Assembly (NCBI GenBank): GCA_963753345.1
Contig: CAVWBU010000041.1
Location: 128,001 to 192,000, forward strand
Direction: 5' to 3'
DNA: 64,000 bases
DNA from: an uncultured Fibrobacterota bacterium
GTDB taxonomy: Bacteria > Fibrobacterota > Chitinivibrionia > Chitinivibrionales > FEN-1185
The notes under the pieces were generated by a model, which did no database searches, had not been told where the DNA came from, and worked only from the letters and a program-made list of their open reading frames with translations. Both the position numbers and the translations under genes were made by a program. Each line of letters starts with the position of its first letter. Positions within the stretch are counted from its first letter, which is position 1. This document shows positions 1 through 46,904 of the stretch, one piece after another.

Positions 1-152
1 TTAGGGGCGACTGGAGGCCGTGCCAGAGCACGGTGCCGCCCGGACCCGGCCCTGTGGGCCATAGGGCCGTGGCGGCCGGAGGCCGAAGGCCGAGACCAGA
101 AGGAGAACCGACCCCCAGTAGAGCCATGCGGCTCTACTGGGGGAAACGCCTA
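1..152 (-). repeat. Structured repeat family A, copy A1 (truncated by window edge)
   Basis: Reverse complement reads GGCGTT-TCCCCCAGTAGAGCC..GGCTCTACTGGGGG-TCGG..CTCCTTC..GGTCTCGGCCTTCGGCCTC..CCGTGCTCTGGCACGG-CCTCCAGTC..CCTAA, matching the other A copies. Confidence 0.85.
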
Positions 153-177
153 AATTCCAACACGGAATTATTATTTA

Positions 178-831: not shown

Positions 832-867
832 GGGGTACTGCTTTCCAAACAAGAATAAGTAATTGAG

Positions 868-1005
868 TTGGGCGTTACCCCGCTACGCGGGGTCGGCCCT
901 CCTTACGGTCTCGGCCTTCGGCCTCGGGCTGCCTACCACAAAGGCCCTGCGGGCCGTGGTCAGGCAGCACCGCGCTCCAGCGCGGCCTTCAGTCCTGCCT
1001 AACGC
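868..1005 (+). repeat. Structured repeat family A, copy A2
   Basis: TTGGGCGTT-ACCCCGCTACGCGGGGT-CGG..GGTCTCGGCCTTCGGCCTCG..GGCCCTGCGGGCC..CCGCGCTCCAGCGCGG..CAGTCCTGCCTAACGC. Confidence 0.9.
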
Positions 1006-1046
1006 AAAAGACACAACCTGCAATAATCTACCGCTCTTTCGCTCTT

Positions 1047-15976: not shown

Positions 15977-16024
15977 ACAAATCTTCAAACTACATCCGGT
16001 CTTTTTTCTCCGACGCTCGCAGCC

Positions 16025-17550: not shown

Positions 17551-17638
17551 TTCTCTCCCCCTTTTTTTTAAAGTAAAGAGGCTGCCTCACACTTTAAAGA
17601 AATATAAAGCAGCCCCCTAGAGTACTAATTAAAAAATT

Positions 17639-19172: not shown

Positions 19173-19285
19173 TTCTCCCTCCCCTTTTTTAGTGATAGGA
19201 ACTTTCGAAAAACAGGAAAAGGTTGTCGCGTCTTTCCAAAAAGGAAAAACGCGGCAACCCGGTATTGTTCGATGAAAAAGGACCC

Positions 19286-20854: not shown

Positions 20855-20973
20855 TTTCACCTTTCCCCCTTTTTGGTTTTTTAAAACTTCAGGCCAGCCG
20901 CAAGAGGCTGCCTCGCACTGCCGGTTCTCCGGGAAAGCGAGGTAACCTCGTTATTTCCGAACGCTTGATCCGC

Positions 20974-22527: not shown

Positions 22528-22583
22528 TTTTATCCTCCCCCTTCTGATTGAGATGAACAAAACTCTTTGCCAATGTGAATCCG

Positions 22584-28415: not shown

Positions 28416-29303
28416 GCCTTGTGCTTCTTGAGGTTCGCGTGCGCGAGATACAGCTCGAACGCCTGCTCGGGTTGCATGTTGTCGTGCACCACCTTGCGCA
28501 CGGCCTTGATCATGGCGATTGGCGCCTCGGACTGGAAGATGTTGCGGCCCATGTCCACGCCCGGCCGCGCCCTGCGCTATGGCGTCGTGCGCCATTTTGA
28601 GCGCGTCGAGCTCGGGCAGCTTCTTGCCGCCCGCGATCACGATGGGCACCGGGCAGGCGCTCGTGACGGTGTCGAACTCGGGCACGAAATAGGTCTTTAC
28701 AAATGCGGCGCCCAGCTCGGCGCACATGCGCGTGGCCAGCCGGATGTACTTTGCGTCGCGCACCATGTCCTTGCCCACCGCGGTCACGCCCAGCACCGGC
28801 ATGCCCACCCTGTTGCCCGCGTTGACGAGGTTGGTGAGGTTCATCACCGACTGCGTCTCGTTTTCCCCGCCCACAAACACCTGGGTCGCGACCGCGCACG
28901 CGTTCACGCGCACCGCGTCCTCAATGTCCATGGCGATGTGCTCGTTTGACAATTCCTTGAGGATGCTGGGCCCGCCGCTGGCGCGCAGCACGGTCGCCTT
29001 GTCAAGCGACGGCGGGATCACGGAGCGCAGGATCCCGCGCGTGAGCATGAGCGCGTCGGCGAACGGCGCGAGCGGCAGGATGGTGATGTCGGGACGCTCA
29101 AGCCCGGTGGTGGGCCCCTGGAAATACCCGTGGTCGAACGCGAGCATCACGGTTTTGCCCGATTCGCAGTTGAAAATCCGGCCGAGCCGGTTCTTCATTC
29201 CCCAGTCGTAATTGTTGGAACCTTTGAGGAAAAAGACCTCGCTCTTCTGGGGCACGTCGGTGTAGAAATTCTTTTCGGCTTTTGAGACGTCTGCTTCGGG
29301 CAT
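28412..29303 (-). CDS. lsrF: LsrF-family thiolase/aldolase; frameshift at ~28561
   Basis: [41 protein letters not shown]. Removing one G gives [11 protein letters not shown] and a stop at 28412. Confidence 0.9.
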
Positions 29304-29417
29304 GGGGCACTCCTTTGGGCATTTTGTTCGGGATGTGGTGGGCGAACCATTAAAAATAATTAGTACGGTATGGACGGGGAGGAAAAGAGATTCAAAGAGA
29401 TCCAACGAGGTCAAATG

Positions 29418-29582
29418 CTGGGCGTTACCCCAAGTGGAGGCGCAAGGCCGTTTGCCTCCACTTGGGGTCGGCCGTCCTTCCGGTCTCGGCCTTCGGCCTC
29501 GGGCCGCCTCGGCCCTAGGCCGCAAAGCGGCCGGGTCCGGGCGGCATCCCGCTATGGCGGGACCTCCAGTCCTGCCTAACGC
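29418..29582 (+). repeat. Structured repeat family A, copy A3
   Basis: GGGCGTT-ACCCCAAGTGGAGGC..GCCTCCACTTGGGGT-CGG..TCCCGCTATGGCGGGA..CCTAACGC; the conserved tail extends to ~29647. Confidence 0.9.
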
Positions 29583-29678
29583 GCGGCAGAGGAATACCCT
29601 TAAGTCAATTACTTCTTCTCACGCCAATCGGTATCTACAATAAATCAAGCAAGGACTCCTCTTTGAATTTGAAACTAT

Positions 29679-29795
29679 TGAAGAACCCCGCCCCATGTGG
29701 CGGGGATTCTTCCATAGCTAAGGAAACAGAACAACAAATATTCGCCCGCTAACCCCCGCGCCAAGTCGCGGGGAATGCGCGGGCTGTGCTATTCA
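29679..29795. mobile_element. 117-bp MITE-like element with TGAA...TTCA ends and an ACTAT target-site duplication
   Basis: ACTAT at 29674-29678 and 29796-29800; internal hairpins CCCCGCC..GGCGGGG and CCCCGCG..CGCGGGG. Confidence 0.7.
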
Positions 29796-29809
29796 ACTAT
29801 TTCTTTCTC

Positions 29810-29959
29810 GGTGCCCCCGCAGCCGAAGCTTCTTTCTCGCAGCCACATTTCTTGGGGGCTACCCACGAGGGGGTAGCGGAGGACCGGCGTGCGAAATAAA
29901 ACGTTCAGAGATTTGACGGCGCACGCCGGGCCGGAGCGAGGGGGAGGCCTCCCCCCATG
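29810..29959 (+). repeat. Structured repeat family B, copy B1
   Basis: GGTGCCCCC-33nt-TTGGGGGCTACC-CACGAGGGGGTAGCG..hairpin..GCCGGAGCGAGGGGGG-AGGCCT-CCCCCCATG. Confidence 0.88.
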
Positions 29960-30040
29960 TAAATTGCTGATTGCCGATATTTTCCCCGGATTATTTTTAT
30001 GATACAACAATTTCAAGTCTCACCAATAGCTGGAGCCTCC

Positions 30041-30563
30041 ATGCCTTTCTACGAATTCTTCTGCCCTGACTGCAACACGATTTTCACCTTCTTTTCGCGC
30101 CGTGTCAATACCGAAACAATCCCGGACTGCCCCTCGTGCAAAAAGAGAAAGCTTGATCGAAGGATCTCCCTGTTTGCCGTTGCCGGAAAAACAAAAAAGA
30201 ATGCAAGCGAAGACTCCGGCGACAAGGGCGAAGACGACCTTCCCGTCGACGAGGCAAGGATGACCAAGGCAATGGAGGCGCTTGCAGGAGAAGCCGAGCA
30301 CCTCAAGCGAGGACGACCCGCGCCAGGCCGCGAACCTCATGCGGAAGTTCTCCGACATGACAGGCCTTAAGTACACCGACAAAATGAACGAGGCGCTGAA
30401 CCGCCTGGAAACCGGAGAAGACCCTGAGGCCATTGAAGCGGAGATGGGCGACGCATTCGAAAACGAAGACCCGTTTATTCTGCCGGAGAAACAGGAAGGC
30501 GCGAAGAGTACAATATCAAAGAAGAAGCCGCTGAAAAGGGATGAGACAGTGTACGAGCTATAA
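30041..30563 (+). CDS. FmdB-family zinc-ribbon protein; frameshift at ~30305
   Basis: MPFYEFFCPDC...CPSC; C-terminal DDPRQAANLMRK..ALNRLETGEDPE lies in the adjacent frame. Confidence 0.85.
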
Positions 30564-30594
30564 TACAATGTTCGAAGATACGTCAGTCTTGGCG

Positions 30595-30725
30595 TTGGGC
30601 GCCTGCCCTGGGCACCGGTTCTCCTCCGAGCTCGGCTATTCGCCTCGTTGCCGGTCCACCCTATGCCTGGCGGCCGGGTCGGCCGGCAATCCCGCTTTGG
30701 CGGGACTCTCCGTCGCCCCTGGCGC
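30595..30725 (+). repeat. Structured repeat family A, copy A4 (compensatory closing stem)
   Basis: Closing stem is GCGCC...GGCGC instead of GCGTT...AACGC; CTCGGCTATTCGCCTCG and TCCCGCTTTGGCGGGA are conserved. Confidence 0.85.
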
Positions 30726-30818
30726 AAGAAACTGCCTCCTTCGTTTTAGTGTAATCAGTACTTGTCCTATTGTGAAGGCAGTTCTTCCCACAAATGCATC
30801 TGTCTTTATTGCGCCACC

Positions 30819-32528
30819 TCACCTCATCACCGTGAACCCCTTCACCATCTCCCCTTTGTCCAAAATCGCCTTTGCAAAGTACCGCCCCGTGGCGTGCTTT
30901 GGCTGCCAGATTGCCTGATCCGCTTTCACGGATAAGGTCTCCAGCAGTTGACCTCCCAGGTCGTAAATTGCGAGCGACGATGTGCCGGAAGGAAGCAAAA
31001 AACAAACTTCCCTGGAAGAAAGCTGACGGATAGCGATGTCAACGTGCCGGGAATTGACTGAACGCGAGAGCTGATTGATCGTCTTGTTCGGATGGTCTTT
31101 GCTGTTGACAAAGATATTGAATGTCAACGTATCCTTGTTTCCGAAATCGTCGGCAACGAGAAATTCCGCGTGGTCCATATAGACGGAATCGGTTGTTGGG
31201 GTCCAGGAGATGGTTCCGCCGGGAGAGACCGTCATGCCGGCAGGGGCCTTGAGGGGCGAGTAGCCGTGGTTGAGGGAATCACCGGAGACAGGGATTTTGA
31301 AGGTAAAGGGGACGGATTTGTAGGCATAGCGGTCGTTGACAAGGTACATAAGAAAGGAAAAGCACGTGTCGTCGGTGTTGGGACAGGACCTGCCGATAAC
31401 AAGCAGGTCCCCGTTCGACGTGGCCGCGCCCCCCACCGCCTCCATGGAGCGCGATGGGCCGGTCGCCAGTGACCAGACACTGTCTCCGTTCGGCTTGACA
31501 TTAAGCAAGTAGAAGTTGTTCTGGGGAACAACGGCGTTGCAATGTGCGCTGCCCAGAATCATGAAATTGCCGTCCGACAGCGGAGCGATGGCATTGATGC
31601 CCTGGGCGAACATCACCAGTCCGCCGAAGGTTCTGAGCCACAGGCTTTCGCCGTGTGCGTTTGCATCGACTTTAAAAAGGTACATCTCGGTCCCTCCGGA
31701 GAAGGGGCTAAAACTCCCGCCGACCAGAAAACTCGTGCCTCCGGCCGGCACGATTGCGCATGCCCTGTCGTTACCGGGGCCTCCGTACGTTCTTGACCAT
31801 GGCGAATTTCCATTGGCGTCGGTTGCCATCAAAAAGGCGTCGAGCCCTCCCGCACCGGCGGAAGAACCGGACGCTGCCACTATGAAACTTCCGTCGCCGC
31901 CCGCGGGCGCGGCGCATACGTCCCCGTCGTAGCTTCCTTGAAATGTCTTTGTCCAAAGGGTGTCTCCGGCGGGAGTTATTCTCAGCAGATAAAGGTCGTA
32001 TTGGCCCGTGATGCTGGAATACCGCGGCCCTGCCACGAGAAACGTGCCGTCTGCGGCGGCCTGTATTGAGGTCGCCCACGCATTGCTCTCCGTGCCGGGC
32101 ATCTCCATTCCCTGATACGTCCTTGTCCACAGCGTATCCCCGGAAGGCGTCACCTTGAAGAGGTATATGTTTCGAACAGCCTGACCGTGCGAATCTGTGG
32201 AGCCAGCAACAACGATGTTGCCGTCCTGCGCGGGTGCCATGCCGCCCGCGGTCTCGTTCCCGCTGCTGCCATAGGTTCTGGTCCACAGCGCATCGCCGCT
32301 GGGCGTGATCTTCTGCAGGCAGATGTCGGTTGTGGGAACGCCGGGCGAAACCCTCGATTCGGCAAGCATGAAATTGCCGTCGGCCGTGGCCATAATGGCG
32401 CGGACAACATCAGAATGCCCGAGGCGAAGATCCCTTTTCCAATAGGTCTGCCCCATGCCGGCGCCGGCCATTATTGCCACCGTAAGAGCGCCGACCGCCA
32501 TTCTCACTACAAACGTCCTTGTATCCAT
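30819..32528 (-). CDS. Secreted beta-propeller repeat protein with an Ig-like domain and a C-terminal CTD-like domain
   Basis: Repeats of the form YLxKxxxxGDxLWTRTYG; APAGMTVS..TISWTP; tail IYDLGGQLL..GRYFAK. Start at MDTRTF. Confidence 0.8.
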   Translation of the reverse strand: MDTRTFVVRMAVGALTVAIMAGAGMGQTYWKRDLRLGHSDVVRAIMATADGNFMLAESRVSPGVPTTDICLQKITPSGDALWTRTYGSSGNETAGGMAPAQDGNIVVAGSTDSHGQAVRNIYLFKVTPSGDTLWTRTYQGMEMPGTESNAWATSIQAAADGTFLVAGPRYSSITGQYDLYLLRITPAGDTLWTKTFQGSYDGDVCAAPAGGDGSFIVAASGSSAGAGGLDAFLMATDANGNSPWSRTYGGPGNDRACAIVPAGGTSFLVGGSFSPFSGGTEMYLFKVDANAHGESLWLRTFGGLVMFAQGINAIAPLSDGNFMILGSAHCNAVVPQNNFYLLNVKPNGDSVWSLATGPSRSMEAVGGAATSNGDLLVIGRSCPNTDDTCFSFLMYLVNDRYAYKSVPFTFKIPVSGDSLNHGYSPLKAPAGMTVSPGGTISWTPTTDSVYMDHAEFLVADDFGNKDTLTFNIFVNSKDHPNKTINQLSRSVNSRHVDIAIRQLSSREVCFLLPSGTSSLAIYDLGGQLLETLSVKADQAIWQPKHATGRYFAKAILDKGEMVKGFTVMR

Positions 32529-32651
32529 TGTCAATCCCCCGTTCTTGCAACTTTCCCATCTTCTTTCTTTCTCCGCCGGCATCGCTGAAGGCGGATAGCA
32601 AAGCAACAAAGTAGTTGACCGAAGAACCTTGTGATTCATTTTTTCGCTCGA

Positions 32652-32687
32652 CCTCACCCCCGGCCCCTCTCCCACAGGGAGAGGGGG
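32652..32687 (+). repeat. REP-like palindrome (CCTCACCCC..CCCTCTCC..GGAGAGGG class), copy 1
   Basis: CCTCACCCCCGGCCCCTCTCCCACAGGGAGAGGGG; a second copy lies at 46619-46668. Confidence 0.75.
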
Positions 32688-32755
32688 ACTGCCATTCCAC
32701 ATTTTTTGAATTTGTCAATGTTCCAGCGACTTTGTTGATTCCACAACTCTCCTCG

Positions 32756-32882
32756 GGTGCCCCCACACAGGTGCATGGTTCTGCCTCTGCCTCCTCTTGG
32801 GGAGCACCCAGGAGGGGGTAGCGCAGGACACCGCAGGCCGAAGGCCGAGGAGGCCGGAGCGAGGGGGATACTTCCCCCCATG
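32756..32882 (+). repeat. Structured repeat family B, copy B2
   Basis: GGTGCCCCC-32nt-TTGGGGAGCACC-CAGGAGGGGGTAGCG..GGCCGAAGGCC..GCCGGAGCGAGGGGGATACTTCCCCCCATG. Confidence 0.88.
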
Positions 32883-32898
32883 AATATTCTTGACAGAA

Positions 32899-32929
32899 GA
32901 TTGCTTCGTCTCCGGCTCCTCCCAATGAC
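32899..32929 (+). repeat. REP-like element of the GATTGCTTCG...CAATGAC class
   Basis: GATTGCTTCGTCTCCGGCTCCTCCCAATGAC; recognised from recalled similarity to a widespread repeat class, single copy here. Confidence 0.5.
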
Positions 32930-33041
32930 ACTCTTCTCATTCTGCAATTAACAAGGCCGGCGCTGGAACCTGGAACTTTTCCATCCCGCCGGCCCTGAAC
33001 TAACACCACCCTACTCTACTGCAAACGCCATGCAGCGCGAG

Positions 33042-35145
33042 CTACCTCACATACCGCATGGTAATCATCTGGCGGGTCTGGCCTACCTGGAGCACGGCAA
33101 GATAGATGCCCGCCGACAGCCTGCGGCCGTTGTCGTCGGTGGCGTCCCAGCGCGCAACATAGTTACCGCCCATGGTCGCTTCGTTCACCAGCGTGCGGAC
33201 CAGCTTTCCCCGCGCGTCGAAGATCTTGATGGTCATCTGCTGCGGAACGGCAAGCGCCGGCACGCCATACCGGATCTGGGTCGCAGACGTAAACGGGTTG
33301 GGCAGGTTCGCTTGCAGCGTGACCCTGGTCGGGAGGCGCGCCGTCTTGTCAAGCATGTTCCTGTTCGCCGTGGGCTCGGTTACCAGGGCCGCGGTGTACT
33401 TGGTGATGATGGCGTATCGTATGCCAAGGTACTTCACCGCATTCACGAGCTCAGGCAGTTCACCGTAGATGCTGATTTCGTCAAGAAGGTAGTCGATCTT
33501 TGCCGACGCCCACATGCGCGGCACAAAGGGATGGTTCCCCGCGGGAGAAGGAAACGCAAGCGTCTGTTTGAGGATAAGCGAATCCGTGCCGCGCCTGCCG
33601 CGGAAGGTGATCGGATACTGTCCCGACGTGCGGTATCTGCCGAGCACCGAAAGCTGGGAGCCGGCGTACAGGCTGGGCAGCGGATTCGGGTACAGGTCGT
33701 ACGCAGAGATCCCGCCGCAGTCGATCGACAGGTCCCTGAGGACCGGGAACGAAATCTTGTTCATAAAGCTCTGCATGATGACGCTGATGCTGTCGTCGGC
33801 AAGGATCATGGTGGCAAAGCCGCTGTTCTGTTTCGCAAGAAGCGTGAGGAAGTCGGTGCCGACCTGGTCGCCGATGCCGAAGGTGAAAATCTCGACGCCC
33901 GTGGTGTTGTGTTTCGTCACCGTGTCGATAATGCTCGCGGGCGTGGAGCTGACGGGCCACGTGGGCTGGCCGTCGGTGAGGAACACGATGGCGTTCACCA
34001 TGGCGGCGTTCCAGCTGCTCTGCAGCGCGGTTTTCAGGGCGTCCTCGATGTCGGTGAGGCCCGCCTCGGAAAGCTGGTTGACAAACACATGCGCGGCCGC
34101 CTTGCCCGCGGAGTCGGCCGGCACAAGGTCGGGCGCGTAGGGTTTCACCGCGGTGGAAAACGCGACGATGTTGAAATAGTCGCCTGGATTGAGTTTGTCA
34201 ATCATGGCGTTGAGCGAGGCGCGCAGCTGGATGATCCTGGTGCCCGCCATCGAACTCGATATGTCGGCGACCAGCACGACGTTCTTGGCTATCGCCTTGG
34301 CGGTGTCGGGCGGCGTCACCCACAGAAGGAAATAGGGGTTGTCGCCCAGCGTGTCGAAGAACTGCATGGTATCGGGGTTCACCACGTAGGTGAGACGGTT
34401 CATGGAGAAGTCGGTGAGCGCGAGCGTGTACACCAGCTTCAGGTCTTTCTGGGAATATGCGTTCTCGTCCCCGAACGTCGCGGTATAATGGTTGTCGGTG
34501 AGCTTTGGTGATTGCAAGCTGAGGCGTGCCGCCATGCGACGGCGAAACCAGGGACAGGATCTGGTTCTGCGCGGTCAGATCAAAGGTAAGCGAGGCGCGG
34601 GTCACCGGTTTCGGAGAAAGGTTGACCGTCTTCATGAAGAACATGTACTGGACCTGCGCTGCATCGTAGGGCAGGAGCTCCGCGTAGGTTACTTCGATGC
34701 GTCGCTCGCACATGAGGTTGCCCACGGCCGCTATGGGATACACCGAGAGCTTGAATATGTTGTTCCCCATGTCCTGGAGGAGCGCAGGATCAATGGAGCG
34801 GCTCACAATCTGGTTATATATCTGCTGCGCGGTATCAGAGGACATGACTTTTGCGACCACGCGCTGGCCGTTTATCCAGAGCGCCAGCTCGGTGACGACC
34901 GCGTTCTCCGGGAGCGGGAACACGAAAACGCCTTCCATCGTCTGGTTTGTTTCGTTCTTGAACGTCTGATCAACGTGGGTCACGGCGATCTGGTCGGTCA
35001 CCTTCACGCTCACATCGTAGTTCTCCAGCCACAGCGGCACACCCGAATCGTTCGAGAATGCCCGGCGGGCATACAAAGCACCCACCGCGGACGCGGAGCC
35101 GGCACACACCAGCACGGCCATCAGCACGCATAAAAGTTTTTTCAT
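33042..35145 (-). CDS. Secreted VIT + VWA domain protein with a C-terminal FlgD/CTD-like domain; frameshift at ~34505
   Basis: VIT (QTFKN..EGVFVFPLP), MIDAS DISSSM and FLTDG, RMWASAKI, PNPF..IFDARGKLVRTL..WDATD..GIY. Confidence 0.88.
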
Positions 35146-35210
35146 CGGTCCCTCCCTGGGGAAAGTGATTTCGAAGGTGATAAAAGTTGACCCTTCCCTT
35201 TGCTGTATCT

Positions 35211-35239
35211 AATATACCGCCATATTTCGGCATGTGCAA
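35211..35239 (-). promoter_or_regulatory. Putative sigma70-type promoter of the VIT/VWA gene
   Basis: TTGCAC-17 bp-TATATT about 65 bp upstream of the ATG. Confidence 0.55.
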
Positions 35240-35310
35240 GGGGGAGTGAAAGAAAGTGTTTTCTGGCAGAAAACTTTGGGGGTTGGAGAGGAAGAAATCA
35301 AGGAAAAAAC

Positions 35311-35453
35311 TTGGGCGTTCCCCTCGCTGTGCTCGGGGTCGGTCTCCTTCCGGGCTCGGCTATTCGCCTCGTTGCCGCCTGCCACAAGGGCCCTTCGGGC
35401 CGTGGTCAGGCGGCAATCCCGCTATGGCGGGACCGCTCCAGTCCCCCTAACGC
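35311..35453 (+). repeat. Structured repeat family A, copy A5
   Basis: TTGGGCGTT-CCCC..GGGG-TCGG..GGCCCTTCGGGCC..TCCCGCTATGGCGGGA..CCTAACGC; tail ACGCCAATCGGTATC..CAATAAATCA is shared with A3. Confidence 0.9.
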
Positions 35454-35589
35454 GCGGCAAAGGAGATTTATTCAGTCACTTTTCTTTTCTGACGCCAATC
35501 GGTATCCGCAATAAATCACTCAGGGTTTCTTATTCGCATATTCAACTTCTCAACTCCTCAACTACTAAACCTCTCAACCAATCTCCGTG

Positions 35590-35738
35590 GGTGCCCCCAC
35601 ACAGGTGTTTGATTTTCGCAACTGCTTCCACTTGGGGTGCACCCTGGAGGGGGTAGCGGAGGACCGGCCGCATTGTTGTAGGCTTGGACAATTGGATACC
35701 GCGGCCGGGCCGGAGCGAGGGGGAAACTTCCCCCCATG
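35590..35738 (+). repeat. Structured repeat family B, copy B3
   Basis: GGTGCCCCC-33nt-TTGGGGTGCACC-CTGGAGGGGGTAGCGGAGGACCGG..CCGGGCCGGAGCGAGGGGGAAACTTCCCCCCATG. Confidence 0.88.
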
Positions 35739-35766
35739 TAAAGTCTTCTTCTTGTAAACCCGGGGA

Positions 35767-37543
35767 TTATCTTACCAGCAGAATTGACTTGCAAACATTT
35801 GACCCATCGGAGAACAAACACCTCGCATATACAATTCCCGACGCGCCGGCATGGCGCGCGACAAGGCTTGTTTGGTTTCCGACAGGCAGGGTTTCGAGCA
35901 TCTGTCCGGCAACATCGTACAGCGAAATGCGCGTGAGCCTGTTGCGCCCAGCCTGCCGGACGAAAAACACCAGGGAGCCGTTGACGAACCTGTGGGTTAT
36001 TGAACCGTTTTCATTGCCGGGGAAAGCAAGCGGACCGCTTGCCACCGTAGCCATGTTGTAGTACAGGATGCTCAGAATGTCGGTCCCCGCCTTTATGGTG
36101 AGCATGTCGGGATTTGAGTAATTGAGCGCCCAGGCGTGGGTTGCGACAAAGGGATAATCCACCCGCATGCACCTGAACACAGGGCACGAAAGGTCTCTTT
36201 CGCAAAGCTCGCACTGCGCCGACACCTGCACCGAGCTGGAACTCAGAGAAAGGGAAATCACGCCGGATTTGAGCCGCAGTGAATCCACCATGCACTGGGA
36301 ATCGGGCGGCAGTGAGCCGATGGTGTACTTCCCATCGCTCTTCAGATTGTAGTTCGTGCCGTTTCTTGTAAGGGTGATCGTCACGTCAGTGTAGCTTCCG
36401 TCAATGTCGCTCAGCACGATGGAATAGACGGAAGTCCCGTTTCCGTTATAGATGAACGGCGATCGGTTGACCGAATCCTTGAGCGCGGACGGAACCGTCG
36501 CGGCGATGCTCGAAGGATTGAGACGGTACGTGGCCGCGGTCCTGTTCCACTGGTTGTCGAGCAATTCCACGCCGGACCCGTCCCACCGGTTGATGAAATT
36601 TGCGAACCGGTAGTCGGCCGTGCCGATGGGACGGTAGACCCACGTGGTCCCGACCCGGTCCACAAACGTCCCCTGCCTGCCCGCGGCGCCGCGCGGGGAG
36701 ATAAAGGTTATGGCCTGGGTGACGGGCGCGTTGTCGTAAGTGTACTTTGCGCCGAGAAACTTGTAAATGGCGCCGCTTGACGTTCCGGCAAAGCCGCCAT
36801 TGACGCACAGCACGGTGTCGGTAACGCCCGTGCCCAAATCATAATTGGTCTCGGCCCATGCGCCGGGGCCGATGCGGAAATACCGCAGGAGCCCGTTCGA
36901 TCCCAGGAGCCATACCGCGGTGTCGGTCTGGGCGGTTGAATCGTGCGCGCCCTGTATCCGGAACACTTCCTCGCCCGCCAGAAGGTTTGCCGGCTTGAGC
37001 GTGTCCGCGTGGAGCACGGCGAGCGTTGTCGTGGAGAGGCTGACGGCCAGGATGTTCTTCTGGCTGGTCTTGACAAGAAGCTTAACGCTGTCGCCGCCGT
37101 ACACCGGGTTTTTCACAAGGTATACCGGCGAGTTCGCGGAAAGCGTGATGCCGCTCAGCGTTATTGCCGCGGGATCGAAGTAGTCGAGGAAGCAGCTCGT
37201 GCACAGCGGCTTGGGCTGCGGGCACTGGTACTGGGTCTTCATGAGGTACAGGCCGCCTGTGCCGGAAGTAAACACCGCCACCGCCGACGCGGCCGGGCCG
37301 CAGATGTCGTACTGCGCGGGCTTGAGTCCGAGCTCCGCACATCGTGTCGGGAATGGTTATGGTGACGCTGTCGTACGTCGCCTTGCCCCAGTTCCTGTTT
37401 GCAAACGCAGGATGCAGGTACACGTACCCGTTGCTGTCCGGATCGCATTGCGGGAAAGCGGACGCGGCAAGCAAGAGCACTCCAACGGCTGCGCATGCGC
37501 AATGCAGCAGAAGGACTCTCTTTTGTGTACTTGCCCGCCTCAT
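35767..37543 (-). CDS. Secreted Cys-containing hypothetical protein with a C-terminal CTD-like domain; frameshift at ~37340
   Basis: Signal peptide (..LLLAASAFP) in ORF 37082..37567 continues in ORF 35767..37281; tail ISLYDVAGQML..GIVYAR. Start uncertain (37543 or 37567). Confidence 0.65.
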
Positions 37544-37595
37544 TTCAGATACTCCTGAGTTGGCCATGATGAATGCCGTTTGCCGTCACCATACG

Positions 37596-40352: not shown

Positions 40353-40359
40353 ATCGTTC

Positions 40360-41196
40360 TTACTGCGGCTTTGGTACGACGACCGGATTGGACATTGGAA
40401 AAACATGGAAATTTATATGGTACACCCTGTCGATGTCCTTGTCGGAACGGACGATTTCGAGAATCTCCCGCCTGAACCGCTTGAGCCGCTCCTCGATCTG
40501 CGCGTACCCTTCAGCCGAGCAGCTGAACGTGAGCGACGACATGCTCCGGCGCTCGCGCGGATACCGGTCGATTGCCTGGCGCGCGAGCTCGGTGGTCGAA
40601 ATCAGAAAGTTGGTAATCGCCAGGGATTTTGCATCGTATCCCGTGGTGATGATATCGTCGACCAGCCGGTAGTACCCGCGTTCGTTTTTCTTGACAAATC
40701 CCATCTCTTCGAGCAGCGCCACCGCTTTTTTCGCTTCGGCCGGCGTGATGGCGGGCGACACCTTCTTCGCAAGCTCGGCGAAATTGCCGTCGAACCTGTA
40801 GAAGTTGAGCACCTCGCGCACCGCGGTGTAATACCACTTGCTGTAGAACTCGTAGTGCTGCGCGTCGGTGACTTTTACCTTCGACTTCTTCGACGCGAGG
40901 ATCTTTTCAAAATAATACTTCTTCTGGTCGTGGTTCTTTGCCTGGTCGAACATGACCAGCAGTTCGAAATACTCGGTCTCCGCGTGCTTCATCTTGAAAA
41001 GCTGCGCAAACTTAAATATAAATTCCGACGAGATGTTCCGCTTTCTCTGAACAACGTTGATGAAGAACCCTGCCGAACTGAACCCCACTTTCTGGGCCAT
41101 GTAGCGGTACGAAAAGAAAGAAAATTCCTTCTTCCTGTCTTCATACAGATCGTTGAGCAGTTTCCGGTAGTCGATGTACTCGTAAATGTCTATCAT
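40360..41196 (-). CDS. TIGR02147 / DUF4423 family protein (Fibrobacterota paralogous family, N-terminal HTH-like region)
   Basis: IYEYIDYRKLL, FSYRYMAQKVGFSS, YFELLVMF, WYYTAVRE, AIDRYPRERR, VYHINFHVFP. Confidence 0.9.
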   Translation of the reverse strand: MIDIYEYIDYRKLLNDLYEDRKKEFSFFSYRYMAQKVGFSSAGFFINVVQRKRNISSEFIFKFAQLFKMKHAETEYFELLVMFDQAKNHDQKKYYFEKILASKKSKVKVTDAQHYEFYSKWYYTAVREVLNFYRFDGNFAELAKKVSPAITPAEAKKAVALLEEMGFVKKNERGYYRLVDDIITTGYDAKSLAITNFLISTTELARQAIDRYPRERRSMSSLTFSCSAEGYAQIEERLKRFRREILEIVRSDKDIDRVYHINFHVFPMSNPVVVPKPQ

Positions 41197-41241
41197 GACG
41201 TACTCTAATCCTTCCAGAGGTCGGGTCGGCCTCTGATGCAA

Positions 41242-41270
41242 AATATACAGTAAACAAAAACCCTATTCAA
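41242..41270 (-). promoter_or_regulatory. Putative sigma70-type promoter of the TIGR02147 operon
   Basis: TTGAAT-17 bp-TATATT about 45 bp upstream of the ATG. Confidence 0.55.
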
Positions 41271-41444
41271 GTGATTTCGACAGAAAGCGTTTTCCTGTAG
41301 AAAACTTTGTCTGAGAGCAATCTTTGTAACTGGTTGTTTTATATGATGATTCAACCTAACTCGGCGATGCACGTTCTGCCATGATCTGGTTCATGAATGC
41401 CGGTAATTCGATCGCGGGAATTCTGGAAGAATCTTCAAATTGAC

Positions 41445-41479
41445 AAATAAAAAAGCCCCGCGCTCTTGCGCAGGGCCTT
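41445..41479 (-). terminator. Intrinsic terminator
   Basis: Minus strand GGCCCTGCGC-AAGA-GCGCGGGGCT-TTTTTATTT after the 41538 gene. Confidence 0.75.
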
Positions 41480-41537
41480 GCAAAACACCGCTTTCGAATC
41501 AAGCCCCGGCCTGGGGAACCCAAGCCGGATGTTGTTT

Positions 41538-43154
41538 CTACTTTGCCAACTTCTTTGCCAACTTCTTGGCAGCAGGAGTGGCAGTCGCCGGCAAGGTCCA
41601 GTAGATGTTATCCATTACCACAGTCTCTCCGGCAACATAGGGCGCCAGGTTAACTCCAAGGAAATAGTCAACATTACTCAAGTCGCATGTCGCGGCCCAC
41701 GCGGACAACGGTATGGCAATGTCGTGCCACACACCGTCAGCTGCATAACCATAGGTTGAAGCGTTCACCCATGTCTGACCAGTATGGGCAAGATTTTCCA
41801 CCAGCAGGGCCACGTCTTGCGCGGAGCTGCTCTTTATCGACACGTGAAGCGTGCAGGCCGCATACGCCGTCATGTCCATGCTCGATAAAGTGCCGCTTCC
41901 GGCAGCAGTGACTGCCGCCCATCCAAATCCTCCCCACGTAGCACCTGATCCCGTGACCGCAACCGCTGGCGTCACGCCGTCTTCTCCCATTGAGTCGGTT
42001 TGATCAATCGTAACGCCGCCACCCGCACCCGTCCACGGGATGAGCTGGAGAATGAGATTGGGACTTAAGGTAGTGGCATCGGTGTAATGCGAGCCCAGGA
42101 GTCCGAATGCCGGCACCTGCGTCGAATACCAGTTCACCGTGCCGCTCTTGGTTTCGTTCATCACGGGGTCGACGTATGAAACCGTAACCATGTCGCTGTC
42201 CTTGACTCCGACCGCTGTTGCAGTCGCGGCGCCAAGGGTGAAACCGACCGTGCCGGTGAATATCGAGGGTGTGGCGGCCATCGCGGTAAGAGTGATGGCG
42301 ACAGTGTCACCCGCCTTGGCACTGCTTACATCCACAACGAGCGTCGCTGCGGAGGTGTGGTCGTTCGTGAGGGAAATTGCTATTTGGTCCGCTGTTCCGT
42401 GGTAGTCGGCGGAGTCGAACGCAAATACGACCGAGGTCGCCAGCCACTGGGCGGAAGCGGAAGTCACGACACTGGGAGTCACCAGACTGGAGTACGTTAC
42501 AGTGACTGAGTCGGTGTTTTTTACGTGGACCGTGTCTTTGCTTGTTATGGCGGTGCTTGCGGTGAAGTACACACTGCCGGTGTACTGACCATAGACGCCG
42601 GAATTCGTAAGCGTCACCGGGAACGGCGTAGGATAAGAAGTGCTCATGACATTGACCGTGGCAGTCTGGCTGGAGATGTTTGGATCGGTAAGCGTAATCA
42701 TCATCGGCGTCGTGATGCCCTGGTACGAAGGATGGTCAAGAGCGACGGTCATTGCCCCGGCTTTCCAGATAATGGTCTGCGTCCGGGTCCCAGCGGGCTT
42801 GGCATCCTTGTACGTAACCGTTACTATGCAGTTCTGATTCACCTGGATCGTGGTGCCCGCTGCAGATGCGGCGGTGGAGAATCCGAGTGCTGCTTTGTAA
42901 ACGCCGCTCTTTCCCGTGAGCAGGACGTTTATGCCAACAGGATCGGCGGTGCTGGTCACCTTGACGGTCTGTGTGTCGGCGCCAAGATCCGCGTCCTTGA
43001 GGGTGATGGTGTCAACACCAGCCGTGCCCATGACCAGAGTGTCATTCATAATGATCTTGCCTTCCGTCCCTTTTGGCTCTGTTCCGCAGCCCGTGGAAAG
43101 GAGAGCGGCAAGTATTGCACTCGCGCCAAGAACTGAAAACAGTACTTTTTTCAT
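41538..43154 (-). CDS. Lipoprotein with three Ig-like repeats and a C-terminal CBM-like (galactose-binding fold) domain
   Basis: Lipobox LSTGC; three repeats ending VTVxYxD-like; WGGFGW...WHDIAIPLSAW...DNIYW; tail AKKLAKKLAK. Confidence 0.7.
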   Translation of the reverse strand: MKKVLFSVLGASAILAALLSTGCGTEPKGTEGKIIMNDTLVMGTAGVDTITLKDADLGADTQTVKVTSTADPVGINVLLTGKSGVYKAALGFSTAASAAGTTIQVNQNCIVTVTYKDAKPAGTRTQTIIWKAGAMTVALDHPSYQGITTPMMITLTDPNISSQTATVNVMSTSYPTPFPVTLTNSGVYGQYTGSVYFTASTAITSKDTVHVKNTDSVTVTYSSLVTPSVVTSASAQWLATSVVFAFDSADYHGTADQIAISLTNDHTSAATLVVDVSSAKAGDTVAITLTAMAATPSIFTGTVGFTLGAATATAVGVKDSDMVTVSYVDPVMNETKSGTVNWYSTQVPAFGLLGSHYTDATTLSPNLILQLIPWTGAGGGVTIDQTDSMGEDGVTPAVAVTGSGATWGGFGWAAVTAAGSGTLSSMDMTAYAACTLHVSIKSSSAQDVALLVENLAHTGQTWVNASTYGYAADGVWHDIAIPLSAWAATCDLSNVDYFLGVNLAPYVAGETVVMDNIYWTLPATATPAAKKLAKKLAK

Positions 43155-43866
43155 CTTTTCTTCCCCTTGATTAAGAATGTTATTGTTTGACGGTTAAAAA
43201 ACCAAAAGTGTAATCACGTGATACCAGCGCGGGCTTTTACCTCCCACCACCCCCTTCTTCCAACAGTTTCCCCCGGCAGAAGCTGTAATCTGGGCTTGAT
43301 TGTTTGATCAATATATTTTGTTTGGTACAAAGAATGAAATCGGAATTTTTGAGGACCCCTCTTCGTCGCAGCACGTTTTAAGCCCACCTCCGGAGAATCC
43401 ATTCCACTACGTTTTAGCAGGTTTCTAATATATGTAGGTTAAGTTGGCTTAAGCAAGAAGAAAAAACTTCCTTTCCGGAAGGTCGCCCTGGTCGCGATTA
43501 TTGCGGGCTGCGCCGAACCTCAGCCTCCTTGAACGAGTGTCCGGTTGATATTCAATCCGTTCCGTCCCCGCTAAAAACCCGGCAATCGCCGTATACAGCT
43601 TGTATACACTTTTTCCCCAGCGGCAGCGGATCCGATTTCAGAAGATTCCCTTCCCCGTGGCCGGTCTCAAAGGTACCGCCAAAAAAAAAATAGAACCTGT
43701 CGTATATTTCCTTCAAGTATGCGATTTTTTTTGTATATTATAAGTTGGTGTATCGGGGGGCATACTTTTATCCCTAATTATGAAGGAGGGCTATGAAGTA
43801 ATCCACCGCACGCTTTGTGATGTTCCGCAGGAAAATAATCATACTTATTCCAGGAGGTTTGTTTCT

Positions 43867-46206
43867 ATGAGAAGTGCAAAGAAAATTTATGCGGTCGCGG
43901 CGGCTCTCATGGCGTGCGCCACCGTATTCGGTCAGAGCGGCGACTTTCAGACCAAAGGCCAGGTGATGTCGGGCAACCAGCCGGTCGCAATGGCCACCGT
44001 CACCTACCTCAATATGGCACAACGTCTGTCCTGGGATTTCTCGCTGACAGACGGCACGTTCGGCGGCGCCACGGTGTCGGCAAAGAACCCGCTTCCGCAG
44101 GACGCGACGGTTTTCCTTCCCTCAGAAGGGAACATTGCCATCGACGTCTTCGAGATGAGCGGGAAACTCGCGGGTACGGTGAGCGGCAAACTTGACAAAG
44201 GCACCTACACCCTGCGACCCCTTGCGGGAAAGCTTGCCCAGTCGATGTACATGCTCCGGATCAGGGCGGGCAACACCGTAACGTATCAGAAGATGCTCAA
44301 CGCGGGATTCAACAACGCGGGCTACACCATCTCCCTGTCGACAAAAAGAGAGCCGCTGGTGATGGCGAAGAAGCTTGCCGCCATCGACTCGATCCGCGTG
44401 GGAAAAACCGGCTACACGCCGGTGGTGGTCCCCATCTCCGCATACACCGACAATGTGGGTATCGTAACGCTGACCCCCGTGGACATTGAAGGCGAGGTCA
44501 ACACGGAATTCGCGAAGCTAACCCAACTCCAGAAATACGGCCAGCTTTGCATGCCGCCATTTACCAGTGTGGGCACGGCTGCAGCGGCGAGCAACTTCTG
44601 CGGCAGTATCTTTGGCGGCGGCGGCTGTTTTAACGGCGGGAACACGCCCTCTTCATGCGCCGACCTGTTTGACGGTTACCAGACAGCAGCGATGGGGAAT
44701 TCGTTAAAAATCCCGCTCCTGATGTCGTACGACGCGGTTCACGGCGCCAGCGCTGTTCCGCAGGTGACCTTTTTCCCGCACAATCTGGGTATGGGCGCAA
44801 TCCAGGACACGCTGCTGTTGCAGAAGGCCTTCCGCGTGTGTGCGCTTGAAGTCCGCGGTTCCGGAGCAAACTGGGGCTTTGGACCCTGCATTGCGGTGAT
44901 CCGCGACGACAGATGGGGACGCTCGTACGAAGGGTTCTGCGAAACGCCTGAGCGCACCCAGATCATGGCACGTCATGCAGTACTCGGGTGCCAGCTTACC
45001 GACATGTCCAACCCCATGTCCTATCTTGCCACATGCAAACACTTTGCGGGTGACGGCAACACCGTAAACGGTGTGAACCAGGGTGAGACTGTTGGGCCCG
45101 ATGCAACGGCCCGTGCAATCAATCTGCCTGGATATGCTTCCGCGGTTGCCGCAGGTGTCGGATGCATCATGCCCTCATTTTCAAGCTGGTGCGACGGCAC
45201 TCCGATGCATCAGAACAAGACTCTCTTGACCGGTTGGCTCAAGTCGACCACAGCCGGCCCGGGATTCCAAGGGTTTGTCGTCGGCGACTGGGAAGCAGGC
45301 TGGCCTCTTCCCACCTGCATGGATGCAGGTCTCGACGTGCCAATGGCGCCGGGCACTAACATTGGAATAATAGCTACTAACGATCCCACCAATAACAATA
45401 ATTTTACGAAATTGGATGCTTTGGGCGGGACCTATCCGGCGCGGATCGATGACGCGGTAAAGCGTGTGCTTCGCGTAAAATACTGGATGAACCTGTTCGA
45501 CCCGAAGAATTACATGACCGACCGGAGGCTCACGGCACTTGTCGGATGCGCAGCGCACCGGGACGTGGCCCGCGCATGCGTGAGGGCCTCGTGCGTTCTT
45601 CTCAAGAACGCCGGTCCTGTCATTCCGATTCCCAAGACCGCGAATGTCGCGATATTGGGCCAGGCTGGAAACGATGTCGGTATCCAGTGCGGCGGATGGA
45701 CCGTGAGCTGGCAGGGCCAGCAGGGTGCGATACCCGGCGGCGGCGGCACCACAATCTTGCAGGGTGTCCAGTCGCTCTGCACGGGCACGGTGACCAGTTC
45801 TGGGACTTCCGATTATAATATTGTAGTCCTCAGCGAAAATCCCTATGCGGAAACGAGTTTCCCCAACGTCGCCATAACCGGCAATGACGCGACCGGCACG
45901 AACGCATCAGTCATTACGCAGGCCGCCGCGGCGCATGCCGCCGGGAAAAAGGTCATCGGCATTCTCATTGCCGGAAGGGCGCTTGACATATCGGGAATCC
46001 TTCCCAGCTGCGACGCGTTTATCTGGGCCTGCCTGCCCGGCTCCGAAGGCGGACTCGGCATAGCGCAACTGCTGTTTAAGGACCAGGGATACGCATTCTC
46101 CGGCAAGCTGCAGGTTACGTGGCCCAACAACTCGACCAATGAACCCATCAACGCCGGAGACGGACAAACCGGTTTGTTCGCCTACGGCTTCGGACTCACC
46201 GACTAG
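43867..46206 (+). CDS. Secreted GH3 beta-glucosidase/exo-glucanase with the nested N-terminal module
   Basis: DAVHG, FPHNLGMGA, RWGRSYE, KHFAGDG, GFVVGDW (nucleophile), CGGWTVSWQG, ENPYAE, LPGSEG, FAYGFGL; GGAGG RBS. Confidence 0.93.
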   Translation: MRSAKKIYAVAAALMACATVFGQSGDFQTKGQVMSGNQPVAMATVTYLNMAQRLSWDFSLTDGTFGGATVSAKNPLPQDATVFLPSEGNIAIDVFEMSGKLAGTVSGKLDKGTYTLRPLAGKLAQSMYMLRIRAGNTVTYQKMLNAGFNNAGYTISLSTKREPLVMAKKLAAIDSIRVGKTGYTPVVVPISAYTDNVGIVTLTPVDIEGEVNTEFAKLTQLQKYGQLCMPPFTSVGTAAAASNFCGSIFGGGGCFNGGNTPSSCADLFDGYQTAAMGNSLKIPLLMSYDAVHGASAVPQVTFFPHNLGMGAIQDTLLLQKAFRVCALEVRGSGANWGFGPCIAVIRDDRWGRSYEGFCETPERTQIMARHAVLGCQLTDMSNPMSYLATCKHFAGDGNTVNGVNQGETVGPDATARAINLPGYASAVAAGVGCIMPSFSSWCDGTPMHQNKTLLTGWLKSTTAGPGFQGFVVGDWEAGWPLPTCMDAGLDVPMAPGTNIGIIATNDPTNNNNFTKLDALGGTYPARIDDAVKRVLRVKYWMNLFDPKNYMTDRRLTALVGCAAHRDVARACVRASCVLLKNAGPVIPIPKTANVAILGQAGNDVGIQCGGWTVSWQGQQGAIPGGGGTTILQGVQSLCTGTVTSSGTSDYNIVVLSENPYAETSFPNVAITGNDATGTNASVITQAAAAHAAGKKVIGILIAGRALDISGILPSCDAFIWACLPGSEGGLGIAQLLFKDQGYAFSGKLQVTWPNNSTNEPINAGDGQTGLFAYGFGLTD

Positions 46207-46233
46207 CGTTGTCCGATTTTCCCGCCCTTTCTC

Positions 46234-46270
46234 GCAGCCGCGGAATCCTCTCCGCGGCTGTTTTTTATTT
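46234..46270 (+). terminator. Intrinsic terminator of the GH3 gene
   Basis: CAGCCGCGGA-ATCCTC-TCCGCGGCTG-TTTTTTATTT. Confidence 0.85.
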
Positions 46271-46284
46271 ATAGGTCATGTTTT

Positions 46285-46440
46285 GGTGGGGGAAGTGTCC
46301 CCCTAGGGTGCAGCCTCCTCGGAAAGGTCTTGATTCGTCTGGTTTGTTAACCTTTCCTGCTGAGTCTGCACCCATACCCCCTCGTGGGTAGCCCCCAAGG
46401 AAGTTTAGCGGCGAGAAAAATGCCTCGGTTGGGGGGCACC
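46285..46440 (-). repeat. Structured repeat family B, copy B4
   Basis: Reverse complement GGTGCCCCC-33nt-TTGGGGGCTACCCACGAGGGGGTA..GGGTGCAG..CTGCACCC..AGGGGGACACTTCCCCC. Confidence 0.85.
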
Positions 46441-46447
46441 GAGAAAA

Positions 46448-46668
46448 ATTGTAGATTGCGGAATGCGGATTTTGGATTGAAAAAAGAAAGCAAGAAGTTC
46501 ATTGCGATCGAATCTCCCGAACTCGCACTTAAAGCATTTTGCTCTTCAGCCACATCGTGGCGCAATATTTATAGCCCGGGGCAACGCCCCGGGAATACAA
46601 AAATATCAATGCACAATTCCCCTCTCCACCTGTGGAGAGGGGTGGCCGCGACAGCGGACGGGGTGAGG
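46448..46668. repeat. Cluster of short repeats between B4 and A6
   Basis: Heptamers aattgta gattgcg gaatgcg gattttg (46448-46479, like those at 7618); CCCGGGGC-AAC-GCCCCGGG palindrome (46575-46593); REP of the CCTCACCCC class on the minus strand (46619-46668). Confidence 0.75.
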
Positions 46669-46731
46669 CGACTGTGCACCGCGGGCTTGGCGTAAAAAGA
46701 AGTAATTGACAGAATAGATTCCCTCTGCCGC

Positions 46732-46870
46732 GCGTTAGGTGGACCGGAGGGTGCGCTGGAGCGCATTGCCGTATGACAGCGGCCCGAAGGGCCATCGCGG
46801 CAGGCGGCAACGAGGCCGAATGGCCGAGCCCGGAGGGAGACCGGCCCGAGCGTGGCGAGGGCAACGCCCA
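46732..46870 (-). repeat. Structured repeat family A, copy A6
   Basis: Reverse complement GGGCGTT-GCCC..GGGC-CGG..GGCCCTTCGGGCC..TGCGCTCCAGCGCA..CCTAACGC, then the GCGGCAGAGG..GTCAATTACTTCTT..ACGCCAA tail. Confidence 0.88.
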
Positions 46871-46904
46871 GATTTTTCTTTAGTATTGAATGAAAAGTCT
46901 GTTG

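Follow-up and report, generated by a model that had tools for sequence, protein, structure and literature searches.

Introduction

The bacterial interspersed mosaic elements (BIMEs) of Escherichia coli are mosaics of a few repeat modules, and their repetitive extragenic palindromic (REP) unit is a single imperfect palindrome of 20-40 nt. The boxB unit of the BOX elements is about 45 nt long. PMC3049150 describes BOX of Streptococcus pneumoniae as boxA-(boxB)n-boxC, with boxE and boxF forms too, and the BOX forms of S. suis as having end modules of 115 and 133 nt. It also reports that pneumococcal repeats insert into one another, and cites a similarity of BOX to the terminal inverted repeats (TIRs) of ISSpn2 (PMC3049150). 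Here we describe a repeat of comparable build from an uncultured Fibrobacterota bacterium of the order Chitinivibrionales. It was noticed in a stretch of 64,000 nt (the window; positions 128001-192000 of contig C41 in assembly GCA_963753345.1), in which a structured repeat, A, is followed on the same strand by a second structured repeat, B. An earlier note on this DNA had taken A and B for the two ends either of a non-autonomous element or of a platform that captures small elements and genes. We find a single non-coding, non-autonomous composite repeat of about 420 nt that lies between genes and has A as one fixed end and B as the other. A full-text literature search on repeats in Chitinivibrionales returned only unrelated papers.

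The closest analogues of the A-B composite appear to be the pneumococcal BOX elements and the E. coli BIMEs. Like BOX, the composite is an intergenic repeat in which a tandem array of variable length is enclosed by two structured end modules that differ from each other and keep a fixed order (PMC3049150). The two also have in common at least about 100 copies, a predicted RNA fold, nesting with other small repeats and the lack of an encoded enzyme, and the S. suis end modules are similar in size to A and B (PMC3049150). The A core differs in being a larger, closed multi-helix domain that is also common alone (220 solo copies), and the host phylum is different. We know of no sequence relationship to BOX; the likeness is one of architecture, the sequences not having been compared. 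With the BIME and REP sequences of Enterobacteria such as E. coli the composite shares mosaic modules and characteristic linkers in intergenic DNA, and neither has a target site duplication (TSD). Some inverted doublets and the effects of orientation and position relative to genes also recall BIMEs and REPINs (REP doublets that form hairpins). A REP unit is one palindrome of 20-40 nt, whereas A and B are 160-200 nt long and contain several helices.

Results

The six A and four B copies of the window served as seeds for profile hidden Markov models (HMMs) of the two modules, which were searched with nhmmer (E<=1e-3) over the whole assembly (G000; 4,516,072 bases in 55 contigs, 94% complete). 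In the window, which was examined by a repeat search and read directly at 29300-36000, 46100-47100 and 1-1300, the six A and four B placements (Table 1) agree within a few bases with four A-then-B pairs that the earlier note had listed. Both repeats are GC-rich, and they are unrelated to each other. Genome-wide, 419 A and 277 B matches were found. The nearest upstream A was on the same strand for 239 of the 277 B, and within 300 nt for 199 of them. The A-B gap had a median of 78 nt (5th-95th percentile 44-210 nt), and in the nearest-upstream-A tally 133 gaps fell in the modal class of 50-100 nt. The other three arrangements of an A and a B served as an internal control for general clustering of intergenic repeats. 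Among neighbours at most 300 nt apart, A-to-B on the same strand occurred 199 times, B-to-A on the same strand once, A+/B- never and A-/B+ twice. Co-occurrence was therefore far above what chance clustering would give, and relative orientation was not random (199 vs 3). Five congeners, G001 to G005, were also searched, and three of them (G001, G002 and G004) have A-to-B composites that match in order and spacing. Because order and strand are fixed and the gap is short, A, linker and B constitute one composite repeat, and the suggestion that A and B are the two ends of a non-autonomous element is borne out.

The assembly holds 199 composites, 220 solo A and 78 solo B, and together these cover 131,933 bases, or 2.9% of its length. 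The median composite measures 424 nt (5th-95th percentile 317-541). Whether an A is followed by a B is predicted by the inward tail, which the earlier note had rightly recognised as common to three window copies (A3, A5 and A6). This tail is a hairpin at HMM positions ~165-199 and was found in 258 of the 419 A matches. B followed 182 of the 258 tailed A, compared with 16 of 142 core-only A.

Two further arrangements of A were seen. In the first, an A+ is followed by an A- tail to tail, about 50-65 nt apart, with a conserved spacer of its own; this third fixed arrangement occurs 29 times within 300 nt in G000 (for example C16:179669-180076) and also in G004 (loci L056-L058). In the second, found in many A copies, A is split at HMM 90-109 by an insertion of ~100 nt (for example C24:76580-76831 and C35:68042-68316), which resembles an optional extra hairpin and is visible too in two rows of the alignment (L042, L045).

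Table 1. Copies of A and B in the window, with the features nested in or next to them (positions counted from the first base of the window)
Feature	Position	Strand	Evidence
A with tail, running past the window start	157 to -55 (1..157 in window)	-	nhmmer HMM 4-196, 170 bits; no B partner found downstream
Solo A core lacking both tail and B, followed by GTCAACT-type heptamers	863-1016	+	nhmmer HMM 3-159, 121 bits
A core and tail hairpin (A3), 5' half of composite 1	29413-29629	+	nhmmer HMM 3-195, 168 bits
Nested 117-nt MITE (miniature inverted-repeat transposable element), linker of composite 1	29679-29795	+	5-bp duplication ACTAT at 29674-29678 and 29796-29800, read from sequence
B module, 3' half of composite 1	29801-29965	+	nhmmer HMM 2-166, 149 bits
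Solo A core without tail (A4)	30586-30752	+	nhmmer HMM 6-182, 97 bits
Secreted repeat protein gene, 627 aa	30819-32702	-	He_PIG Ig-like domain match
REP-like GC hairpin, ~60 nt upstream of B2	~32650-32690	+	read from sequence
Solo B (B2), no proximal A, REP-like hairpin before it	32747-32888	+	nhmmer HMM 2-166, 112 bits
A core and tail, 5' half of composite 2 (canonical form)	35305-35507	+	nhmmer HMM 2-197, 178 bits
Tandem 8-mer array in linker, unit TCAACTTC	35542-35578	+	TRF period 8, 4.6 copies
B module, 3' half of composite 2, with GC hairpin and T-rich trailer at its end	35580-35743	+	nhmmer HMM 1-165, 152 bits
B module of composite 3	46449-46281	-	nhmmer HMM 2-164, 131 bits
Long linker of composite 3	46450-46680	-	REP-like hairpin ~46613-46682, small hairpin 46575-46593, short periodic AATCC-type repeats
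A core and tail of composite 3 (A6)	46877-46681	-	nhmmer HMM 2-199, 164 bits

The contents of the four window pairs had been described correctly: a MITE with a 5-bp duplication, a gene with a REP-like hairpin, 8-mers, and two hairpins with periodic repeats. Among the 45 linkers listed, one grammar is followed: the tail hairpin, a spacer of ~25 nt, a run of 2 to ~8 YTCAACNN units, and B. Of the 199 composites, 58% have at least two YTYAAC motifs in the 110 nt upstream of B; the same was found in 1% of the 277 flanks downstream of B and in 1% of 143 stretches downstream of core-only A. Some linkers also contain GTCAAC-type heptamers or AATCC-type repeats. In all three of the listed linkers that have a REP-like hairpin, it stands directly after the tail. 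When genomic copies of this hairpin were located with blastn, 11 of 15 were within A-B linkers, compared with 0.3 expected from linker length; for the 117-nt MITE the count was 6 of 48 G000 loci, compared with 0.9 expected. The blastn queries were linker-embedded copies, which may inflate both enrichments somewhat. With its TIRs and 5-bp TSD the 117-nt element is a MITE of the classic kind, and it is also present in many copies in G002, G004 and G005. Read outward, its ends are similar to the 8-mer unit found in A-B linkers, and this may explain why it lands there. The linker thus varies in content and is a place where small repeats are preferentially found.

These nested repeats led to the idea of a cassette or insertion platform, in which A and B would be recombination ends that capture genes and small elements. 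The fixed order and strand of A and B, the excess of REP-like hairpins and MITEs in the linker and the MITE with a clean 5-bp duplication inside it are what such a platform would show, and the part of the idea that stands is that the linker is enriched in small nested repeats compared with other non-coding DNA. The REP-like hairpin, however, occupies one fixed position in the linker and so looks like an optional module rather than a random capture, and the enrichment itself may be somewhat inflated by the choice of queries. The capture of genes is the part that does not stand, since the median gap is 78 nt and gene-sized distances between A and B are no commoner than chance. Neighbouring solo A and solo B on the same strand were 300-3000 nt apart in 9 cases (here called brackets), where 5.85 +/- 2.34 were expected when the unit labels were shuffled over the unit positions (P = 0.135).

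The contents of the brackets were also ordinary. With gaps of 300-6000 nt there are 11 brackets, and 10 were analysed besides the window's own; 8 of those 10 contain open reading frames (ORFs) of at least 100 aa. A Pfam scan was made of 15 ORF translations, three of them from the window, including two small ORFs outside the window bracket (29999-30563). The matches were to a restriction-modification methylase, an EEP-family nuclease/phosphatase, BrkB, a CDP-alcohol phosphatidyltransferase, carbohydrate-binding or Ig-like secreted proteins and a zinc-ribbon protein; six had no match. None of the 15 was a transposase or recombinase by Pfam, so the earlier remark that no mobilising enzyme is encoded holds for the brackets as well. 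In four brackets of 1.5-2 kb a gene lies between A and B on the strand opposite to theirs, which a platform could explain, but in these four the A copy lacks the tail that normally accompanies B. The bracket most similar to that of the window, on C16, encodes a protein of 607 aa without homology to the 627-aa window protein (E = 0.32). The two brackets have in common a REP-like hairpin ~60 nt upstream of B, a layout that is found at other solo B too.

Since distant brackets are at chance level, their genes are unrelated and the A copies in four of them are tail-less, the genes between a distant A and B are not cargo. The apparent cargo reflects the chance neighbourhood of solo A and solo B, and 30819-32702 is an ordinary gene. 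Every B of the window had been credited with an A partner. Three of these pairs are proximal; the fourth, at 30595-32882, joins a tail-less A to a B across a gap of 1995 nt and belongs to a class no commoner than chance. The pairing of A4 with the B at 32747 is most likely a coincidence, because a tail-less A rarely has a B (16 of 142) and distant brackets occur as often as shuffled labels predict. Gene-sized brackets at chance level with unrelated genes also differ from an integron-like platform, although no search aimed at an integron integrase was made. We regard a capturing platform as very unlikely.

The position of the repeats relative to genes was analysed with crude gene calls from ORFs and codon usage (3097 genes, 77% coding, some mis-called). 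A unit was used if each of its sides had a gene of 300 nt or more no further than 1500 nt away, which left 188 of the 199 composites, 203 of the 220 solo A and 72 of the 78 solo B. Composites were enriched between convergent genes (48 of 188, vs 432 of 2875 gene pairs genome-wide). Where the neighbouring genes are co-directional, an antisense placement prevailed for composites (79 to 26) and for solo B (31 to 8), and solo A showed no bias (55 to 47). We read this B-linked bias as a probable polar effect, exerted when B is transcribed in its own sense: if B carries a polar signal on its own strand, B-bearing units would be left mostly antisense between co-directional genes. Composites also prefer the C-rich strand, 81 to 41 with repeats masked, and 36 to 17 in convergent or divergent settings.

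Both modules have a predicted fold. A contains five helices in a domain of ~160 nt, plus the tail hairpin. Across 23 copies of A, 94.7% of cells were paired, vs 33-50% with slid partners; compensatory change was found in 9 of 23 pairs, a count reached by 1 of 500 shuffles, and covariation was 0.287 vs 0.151 (0 of 500). B has three predicted helices and a variable hairpin seen in the alignment. Across 24 copies of B, 98.2% of cells were paired, vs 56-77% with slid partners; two-sided change was found in 1 of 19 pairs, and one helix is mostly U-G. The long hairpin in B is wholly different in sequence between subtypes. No covariation between A and B rose above permutation in 142 composites.

The tests of the strand on which these folds might act were less uniform. 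When the count was restricted to pairs with 60% or more Watson-Crick cells, the plus strand had more G-U than A-C cells in A (211 to 123) and in B (236 to 79). Folding of single copies made the plus strand more stable in 40 of 213 A and in 175 of 236 B, as G content alone predicts, and so the two measures disagree on the strand for A. Two other strand tests were rejected. The excess of G-U over A-C on the plus strand given by RNAalifold was set aside as evidence because the method itself favours G-U, and folding of whole composites gave a z-score of -3.5 on either strand.

A reading in which each composite is a structured RNA gene draws on these results. It supposes an RNA of ~420 nt transcribed from the plus strand of each composite, from the A-rich leader to the GC hairpin and U-rich trailer of B. 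The fixed order and strand, the folds kept in old copies with compensatory changes, and the plus-strand G-U excess would fit such genes, as would the terminal hairpin and T-rich trailer of B, which are kept even in solo B. The mostly antisense placement of the units relative to their neighbours is also what separate transcription units could show. Against this, the upstream sequences of composites share no promoter-like motif, only an A-rich tract, and the T-rich tract begins ~9 nt after the terminal hairpin of B. A promoter (sigma-70-type) and terminator scan of 29300-36000 found no site recurring at the element ends and no terminator at the B ends. Folding of single sequences points to opposite strands for the two modules, minus for A and plus for B, and solo A and solo B are common. 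No Rfam 15 family matched anywhere in the window at gathering score; the single match at E<=1 was sub-threshold and at chance level (23 bits vs a 60-bit gathering score). ARAGORN found no tRNA-like gene and no gene resembling a transfer-messenger RNA (tmRNA). Multi-copy RNA genes seem unlikely. An extended form, in which about 200 paralogous RNAs of ~420 nt would be independently transcribed, selected for fold and shuffled by gene conversion, with the 8-mer tract as a protein docking site that draws the MITE in, is equally doubtful. If true, it would amount to a genome-wide RNA or protein-binding punctuation system of a kind not described in bacteria.

No TSD was found at the composite: the longest word shared by the two 40-nt flanks averaged 5.25 for true and 5.22 for mismatched flanks in 157 composites (p = 0.40), in a test that is blind to duplications under ~4 bp or decayed ones. 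Flank complementarity was -9.56 kcal/mol within the same copy and -9.48 kcal/mol between different copies (157 copies). In 93 copies, comparison of the left end with the reverse complement of the right end gave 13.2, compared with 12.3 in direct orientation and 10.4 for shuffled ends, and no convincing TIR was found. Terminal inverted similarity in the consensus is limited to an A-run and TTGG. The composite resembles a MITE in being non-coding, high-copy, intergenic and non-autonomous, and differs from one in having no excess of direct repeats in its flanks and only this short terminal similarity. The A-rich leader accompanies A and the T-rich trailer accompanies B, solo copies included; because they are kept there, they belong to the modules. 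A split A|T target was rejected as their source for the same reason.

No Y1_Tnp domain (PF01797, 0 matches), no TnpB-type domain and no RVT_1 was found in G000. Y1_Tnp has 8 matches in G002, 2 in G004 and 2 weak ones in G005, and none in G001 or in G003, a 99% complete assembly with no A or B match. Since it lacks the repeats, G003 is a natural contrast for finding the enzyme responsible. A single-stranded DNA element moved by an HUH (Y1) transposase since lost from G000, in the manner of the REPINs and their REP-associated tyrosine transposases (RAYTs) or of palindrome-associated transposable elements (PATEs) derived from IS200/IS605, would agree with this distribution. It would agree as well with the absence of a TSD and of a convincing TIR, the GC hairpins near both ends, the preference for the C-rich strand, and the 29 convergent A+/A- pairs ~55 nt apart, which recall REPIN doublets. 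However, no Y1_Tnp was found in G000 or G001, no RAYT was found in G000, and no A or B lies within ~1.5 kb of six Y1 loci even at E<=1, so that the search for copies accompanied by an HUH/Y1 enzyme was negative at these loci. The Y1 gene of G002 sits in an IS200-like unit of 553 bp, and that of G004 is flanked by other, much smaller hairpins. A and B are also multi-helix domains rather than short palindromes. We consider movement by a Y1 enzyme quite unlikely.

Some observations on the Y1 genes stand by themselves. A reading frame for a Y1 transposase of 144 aa occurs in G002 in six or more nearly identical copies, and G000 has none; at two loci on G002:C5 (L070, L073) the 553-bp IS200-like unit is 100% identical. 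The small CCCGGGGC...GCCCCGGG hairpin at 46575-46593 (-), in the linker between A6 and B4, is of the type found beside a 152-aa Y1 (RAYT-like) transposase gene on G004:C33 (L071). Hairpins of this type next to a Y1 gene suggest a separate REP-RAYT system in the genus.

IS110 was also tried as mobiliser and rejected: G000 has a single copy at a contig end, a search with this protein did not find it in G001, G003 or G004, and the relatives in G002 are only 26% identical. DDE_Tnp_1 has 7 matches and rve 1 match in G000.

The family consists of old, mosaic copies. Between pairs of copies the median identity is 0.73 (A) and 0.72 (B), and nearest-neighbour identity is 0.87 and 0.89, respectively (213 A, 236 B). 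A neighbour with an identity of 0.97 or more exists for only 7 A and 7 B, and some of these are suspected to come from redundant small contigs. Variants of A and B within a composite are independent, with a maximum mutual information of 0.22 vs a permuted maximum of 0.16-0.20 (142 composites), and linkage within modules declines over ~50-100 nt. The A/B family is present in four of the five congeners, with dozens to hundreds of copies in each, and has no match in G003. Beyond the genus, the genomes of the order gave weak B-like matches only (28 of 81 at E<=1e-5), the best being 1.8e-15.

Orthologous sites show both long-term inheritance and turnover of composites. Four G000 composites are common to G001 or G002 at orthologous sites. 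At the site shared with G001 the flanks are 89% identical and the element 65% (364 of 560 aligned columns), the linker is unrelated and the B subtype differs. At one site shared with G002, B is more conserved than the flanks, and A lacks the tail and linker, which were lost. Two window composites are absent from the orthologous place in another species, so presence and absence vary between species. The composite at 35305-35743 is missing from the orthologous spacer of G004, which measures 221 nt vs 644 nt in G000, and that at 46281-46877 from the orthologous convergent-gene spacer of G005 (269 nt). For the latter comparison no A or B match was found in the seven loci L059-L065; those in G002 and G004 were anchored on the orthologue of the first gene, the second gene not being found. 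At the site orthologous to 29413, the A core of G002 and G005 lacks a B and differs considerably in its first hairpin, and G004 has a different small repeat.

Reads gave no further view of empty sites. In the short Logan contigs of four DNA runs, which are broken in repeats, word depth was ~120-900 over the densest repeat bins vs ~2-20 on unique flanks. Joints between these contigs were rejected as evidence because they connect different repeat copies and are uninformative on empty sites.

Discussion

We think it probable that the A-B composite as a whole is a repeat of the BOX/BIME type, spread long ago and altered since by slippage and by exchange of modules. The results establish how the element is built and in how many copies, the grammar of its linker, the age and mosaic nature of the copies, where the family occurs, the lack of a detectable TSD or cis-encoded enzyme, and orthologous sites that are partly conserved and partly empty; the mode of spread, gene conversion and any effect on transcripts are inferred. 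The element has the order A-rich leader, multi-helix A core, tail hairpin, variable 8-mer run, B, GC hairpin and T-rich trailer. It would have spread through the intergenic DNA of an ancestor of this Chitinivibrionales genus without duplicating its target and without carrying a gene. Thereafter copies would mostly have been inherited. They would also swap modules, probably by gene conversion between short conserved segments, and such exchange would explain both the mosaic copies and the orthologous copy that has diverged far more than its flanks. Module replacement is best explained by exchange between copies. The differing contents between A and B would come from slippage of the 8-mers, from an optional hairpin at a fixed place in the linker and from secondary insertion of a MITE whose termini resemble the 8-mer.

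Several points weigh against this interpretation. A nearest-neighbour identity of ~87% shows no recent transposition in G000. No mobilising enzyme or mechanism has been identified, and the element is called mobile from its distribution only. The case for gene conversion is the mosaicism and one strongly diverged orthologous pair, and re-insertion at a hotspot would look similar. That hundreds of old copies keep their folds could reflect some function for the host, which lies outside this explanation. The HMM seeds were window copies only, six of A and four of B, and the orientation statistics depend on the crude gene calls. The likeness to BOX is also incomplete: the internal unit is 8 nt here, compared with ~45 nt for boxB. 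No convincing TIR is seen here, in contrast to the ISSpn2-like TIR cited for BOX (PMC3049150).

If the composite is of this type, modular repeats of the BOX/BIME build exist in Fibrobacterota too, with unusually large and well-folded end modules that occupy ~3% of a 4.5-Mb assembly. They offer a useful natural system for the persistence of repeat families, in which old copies keep their folds and an orthologous copy at 65% identity between flanks at 89% points to module exchange between copies. For annotation of these genomes the results give a simple rule: an A followed by a B within ~300 nt is one element, and the genes between a distant A and B are not its cargo.

Other features of the window

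Three further features were noted in the window. The gene at 33042-35145 (-) is split into overlapping ORFs at 33042-34535 and 34198-35145. One base at 34508 is missing in contigs of runs X2 and X5, and runs X1 and X3 match the window, which points to a frameshift variant in the population or to an assembly error. Positions 13095-14558 contain five tandem copies of a 291-nt unit, probably part of a repeat protein. At 16000-22550, four tandem paralogous units of ~1.62-1.68 kb with 60-90% identity probably represent a tandem gene family.

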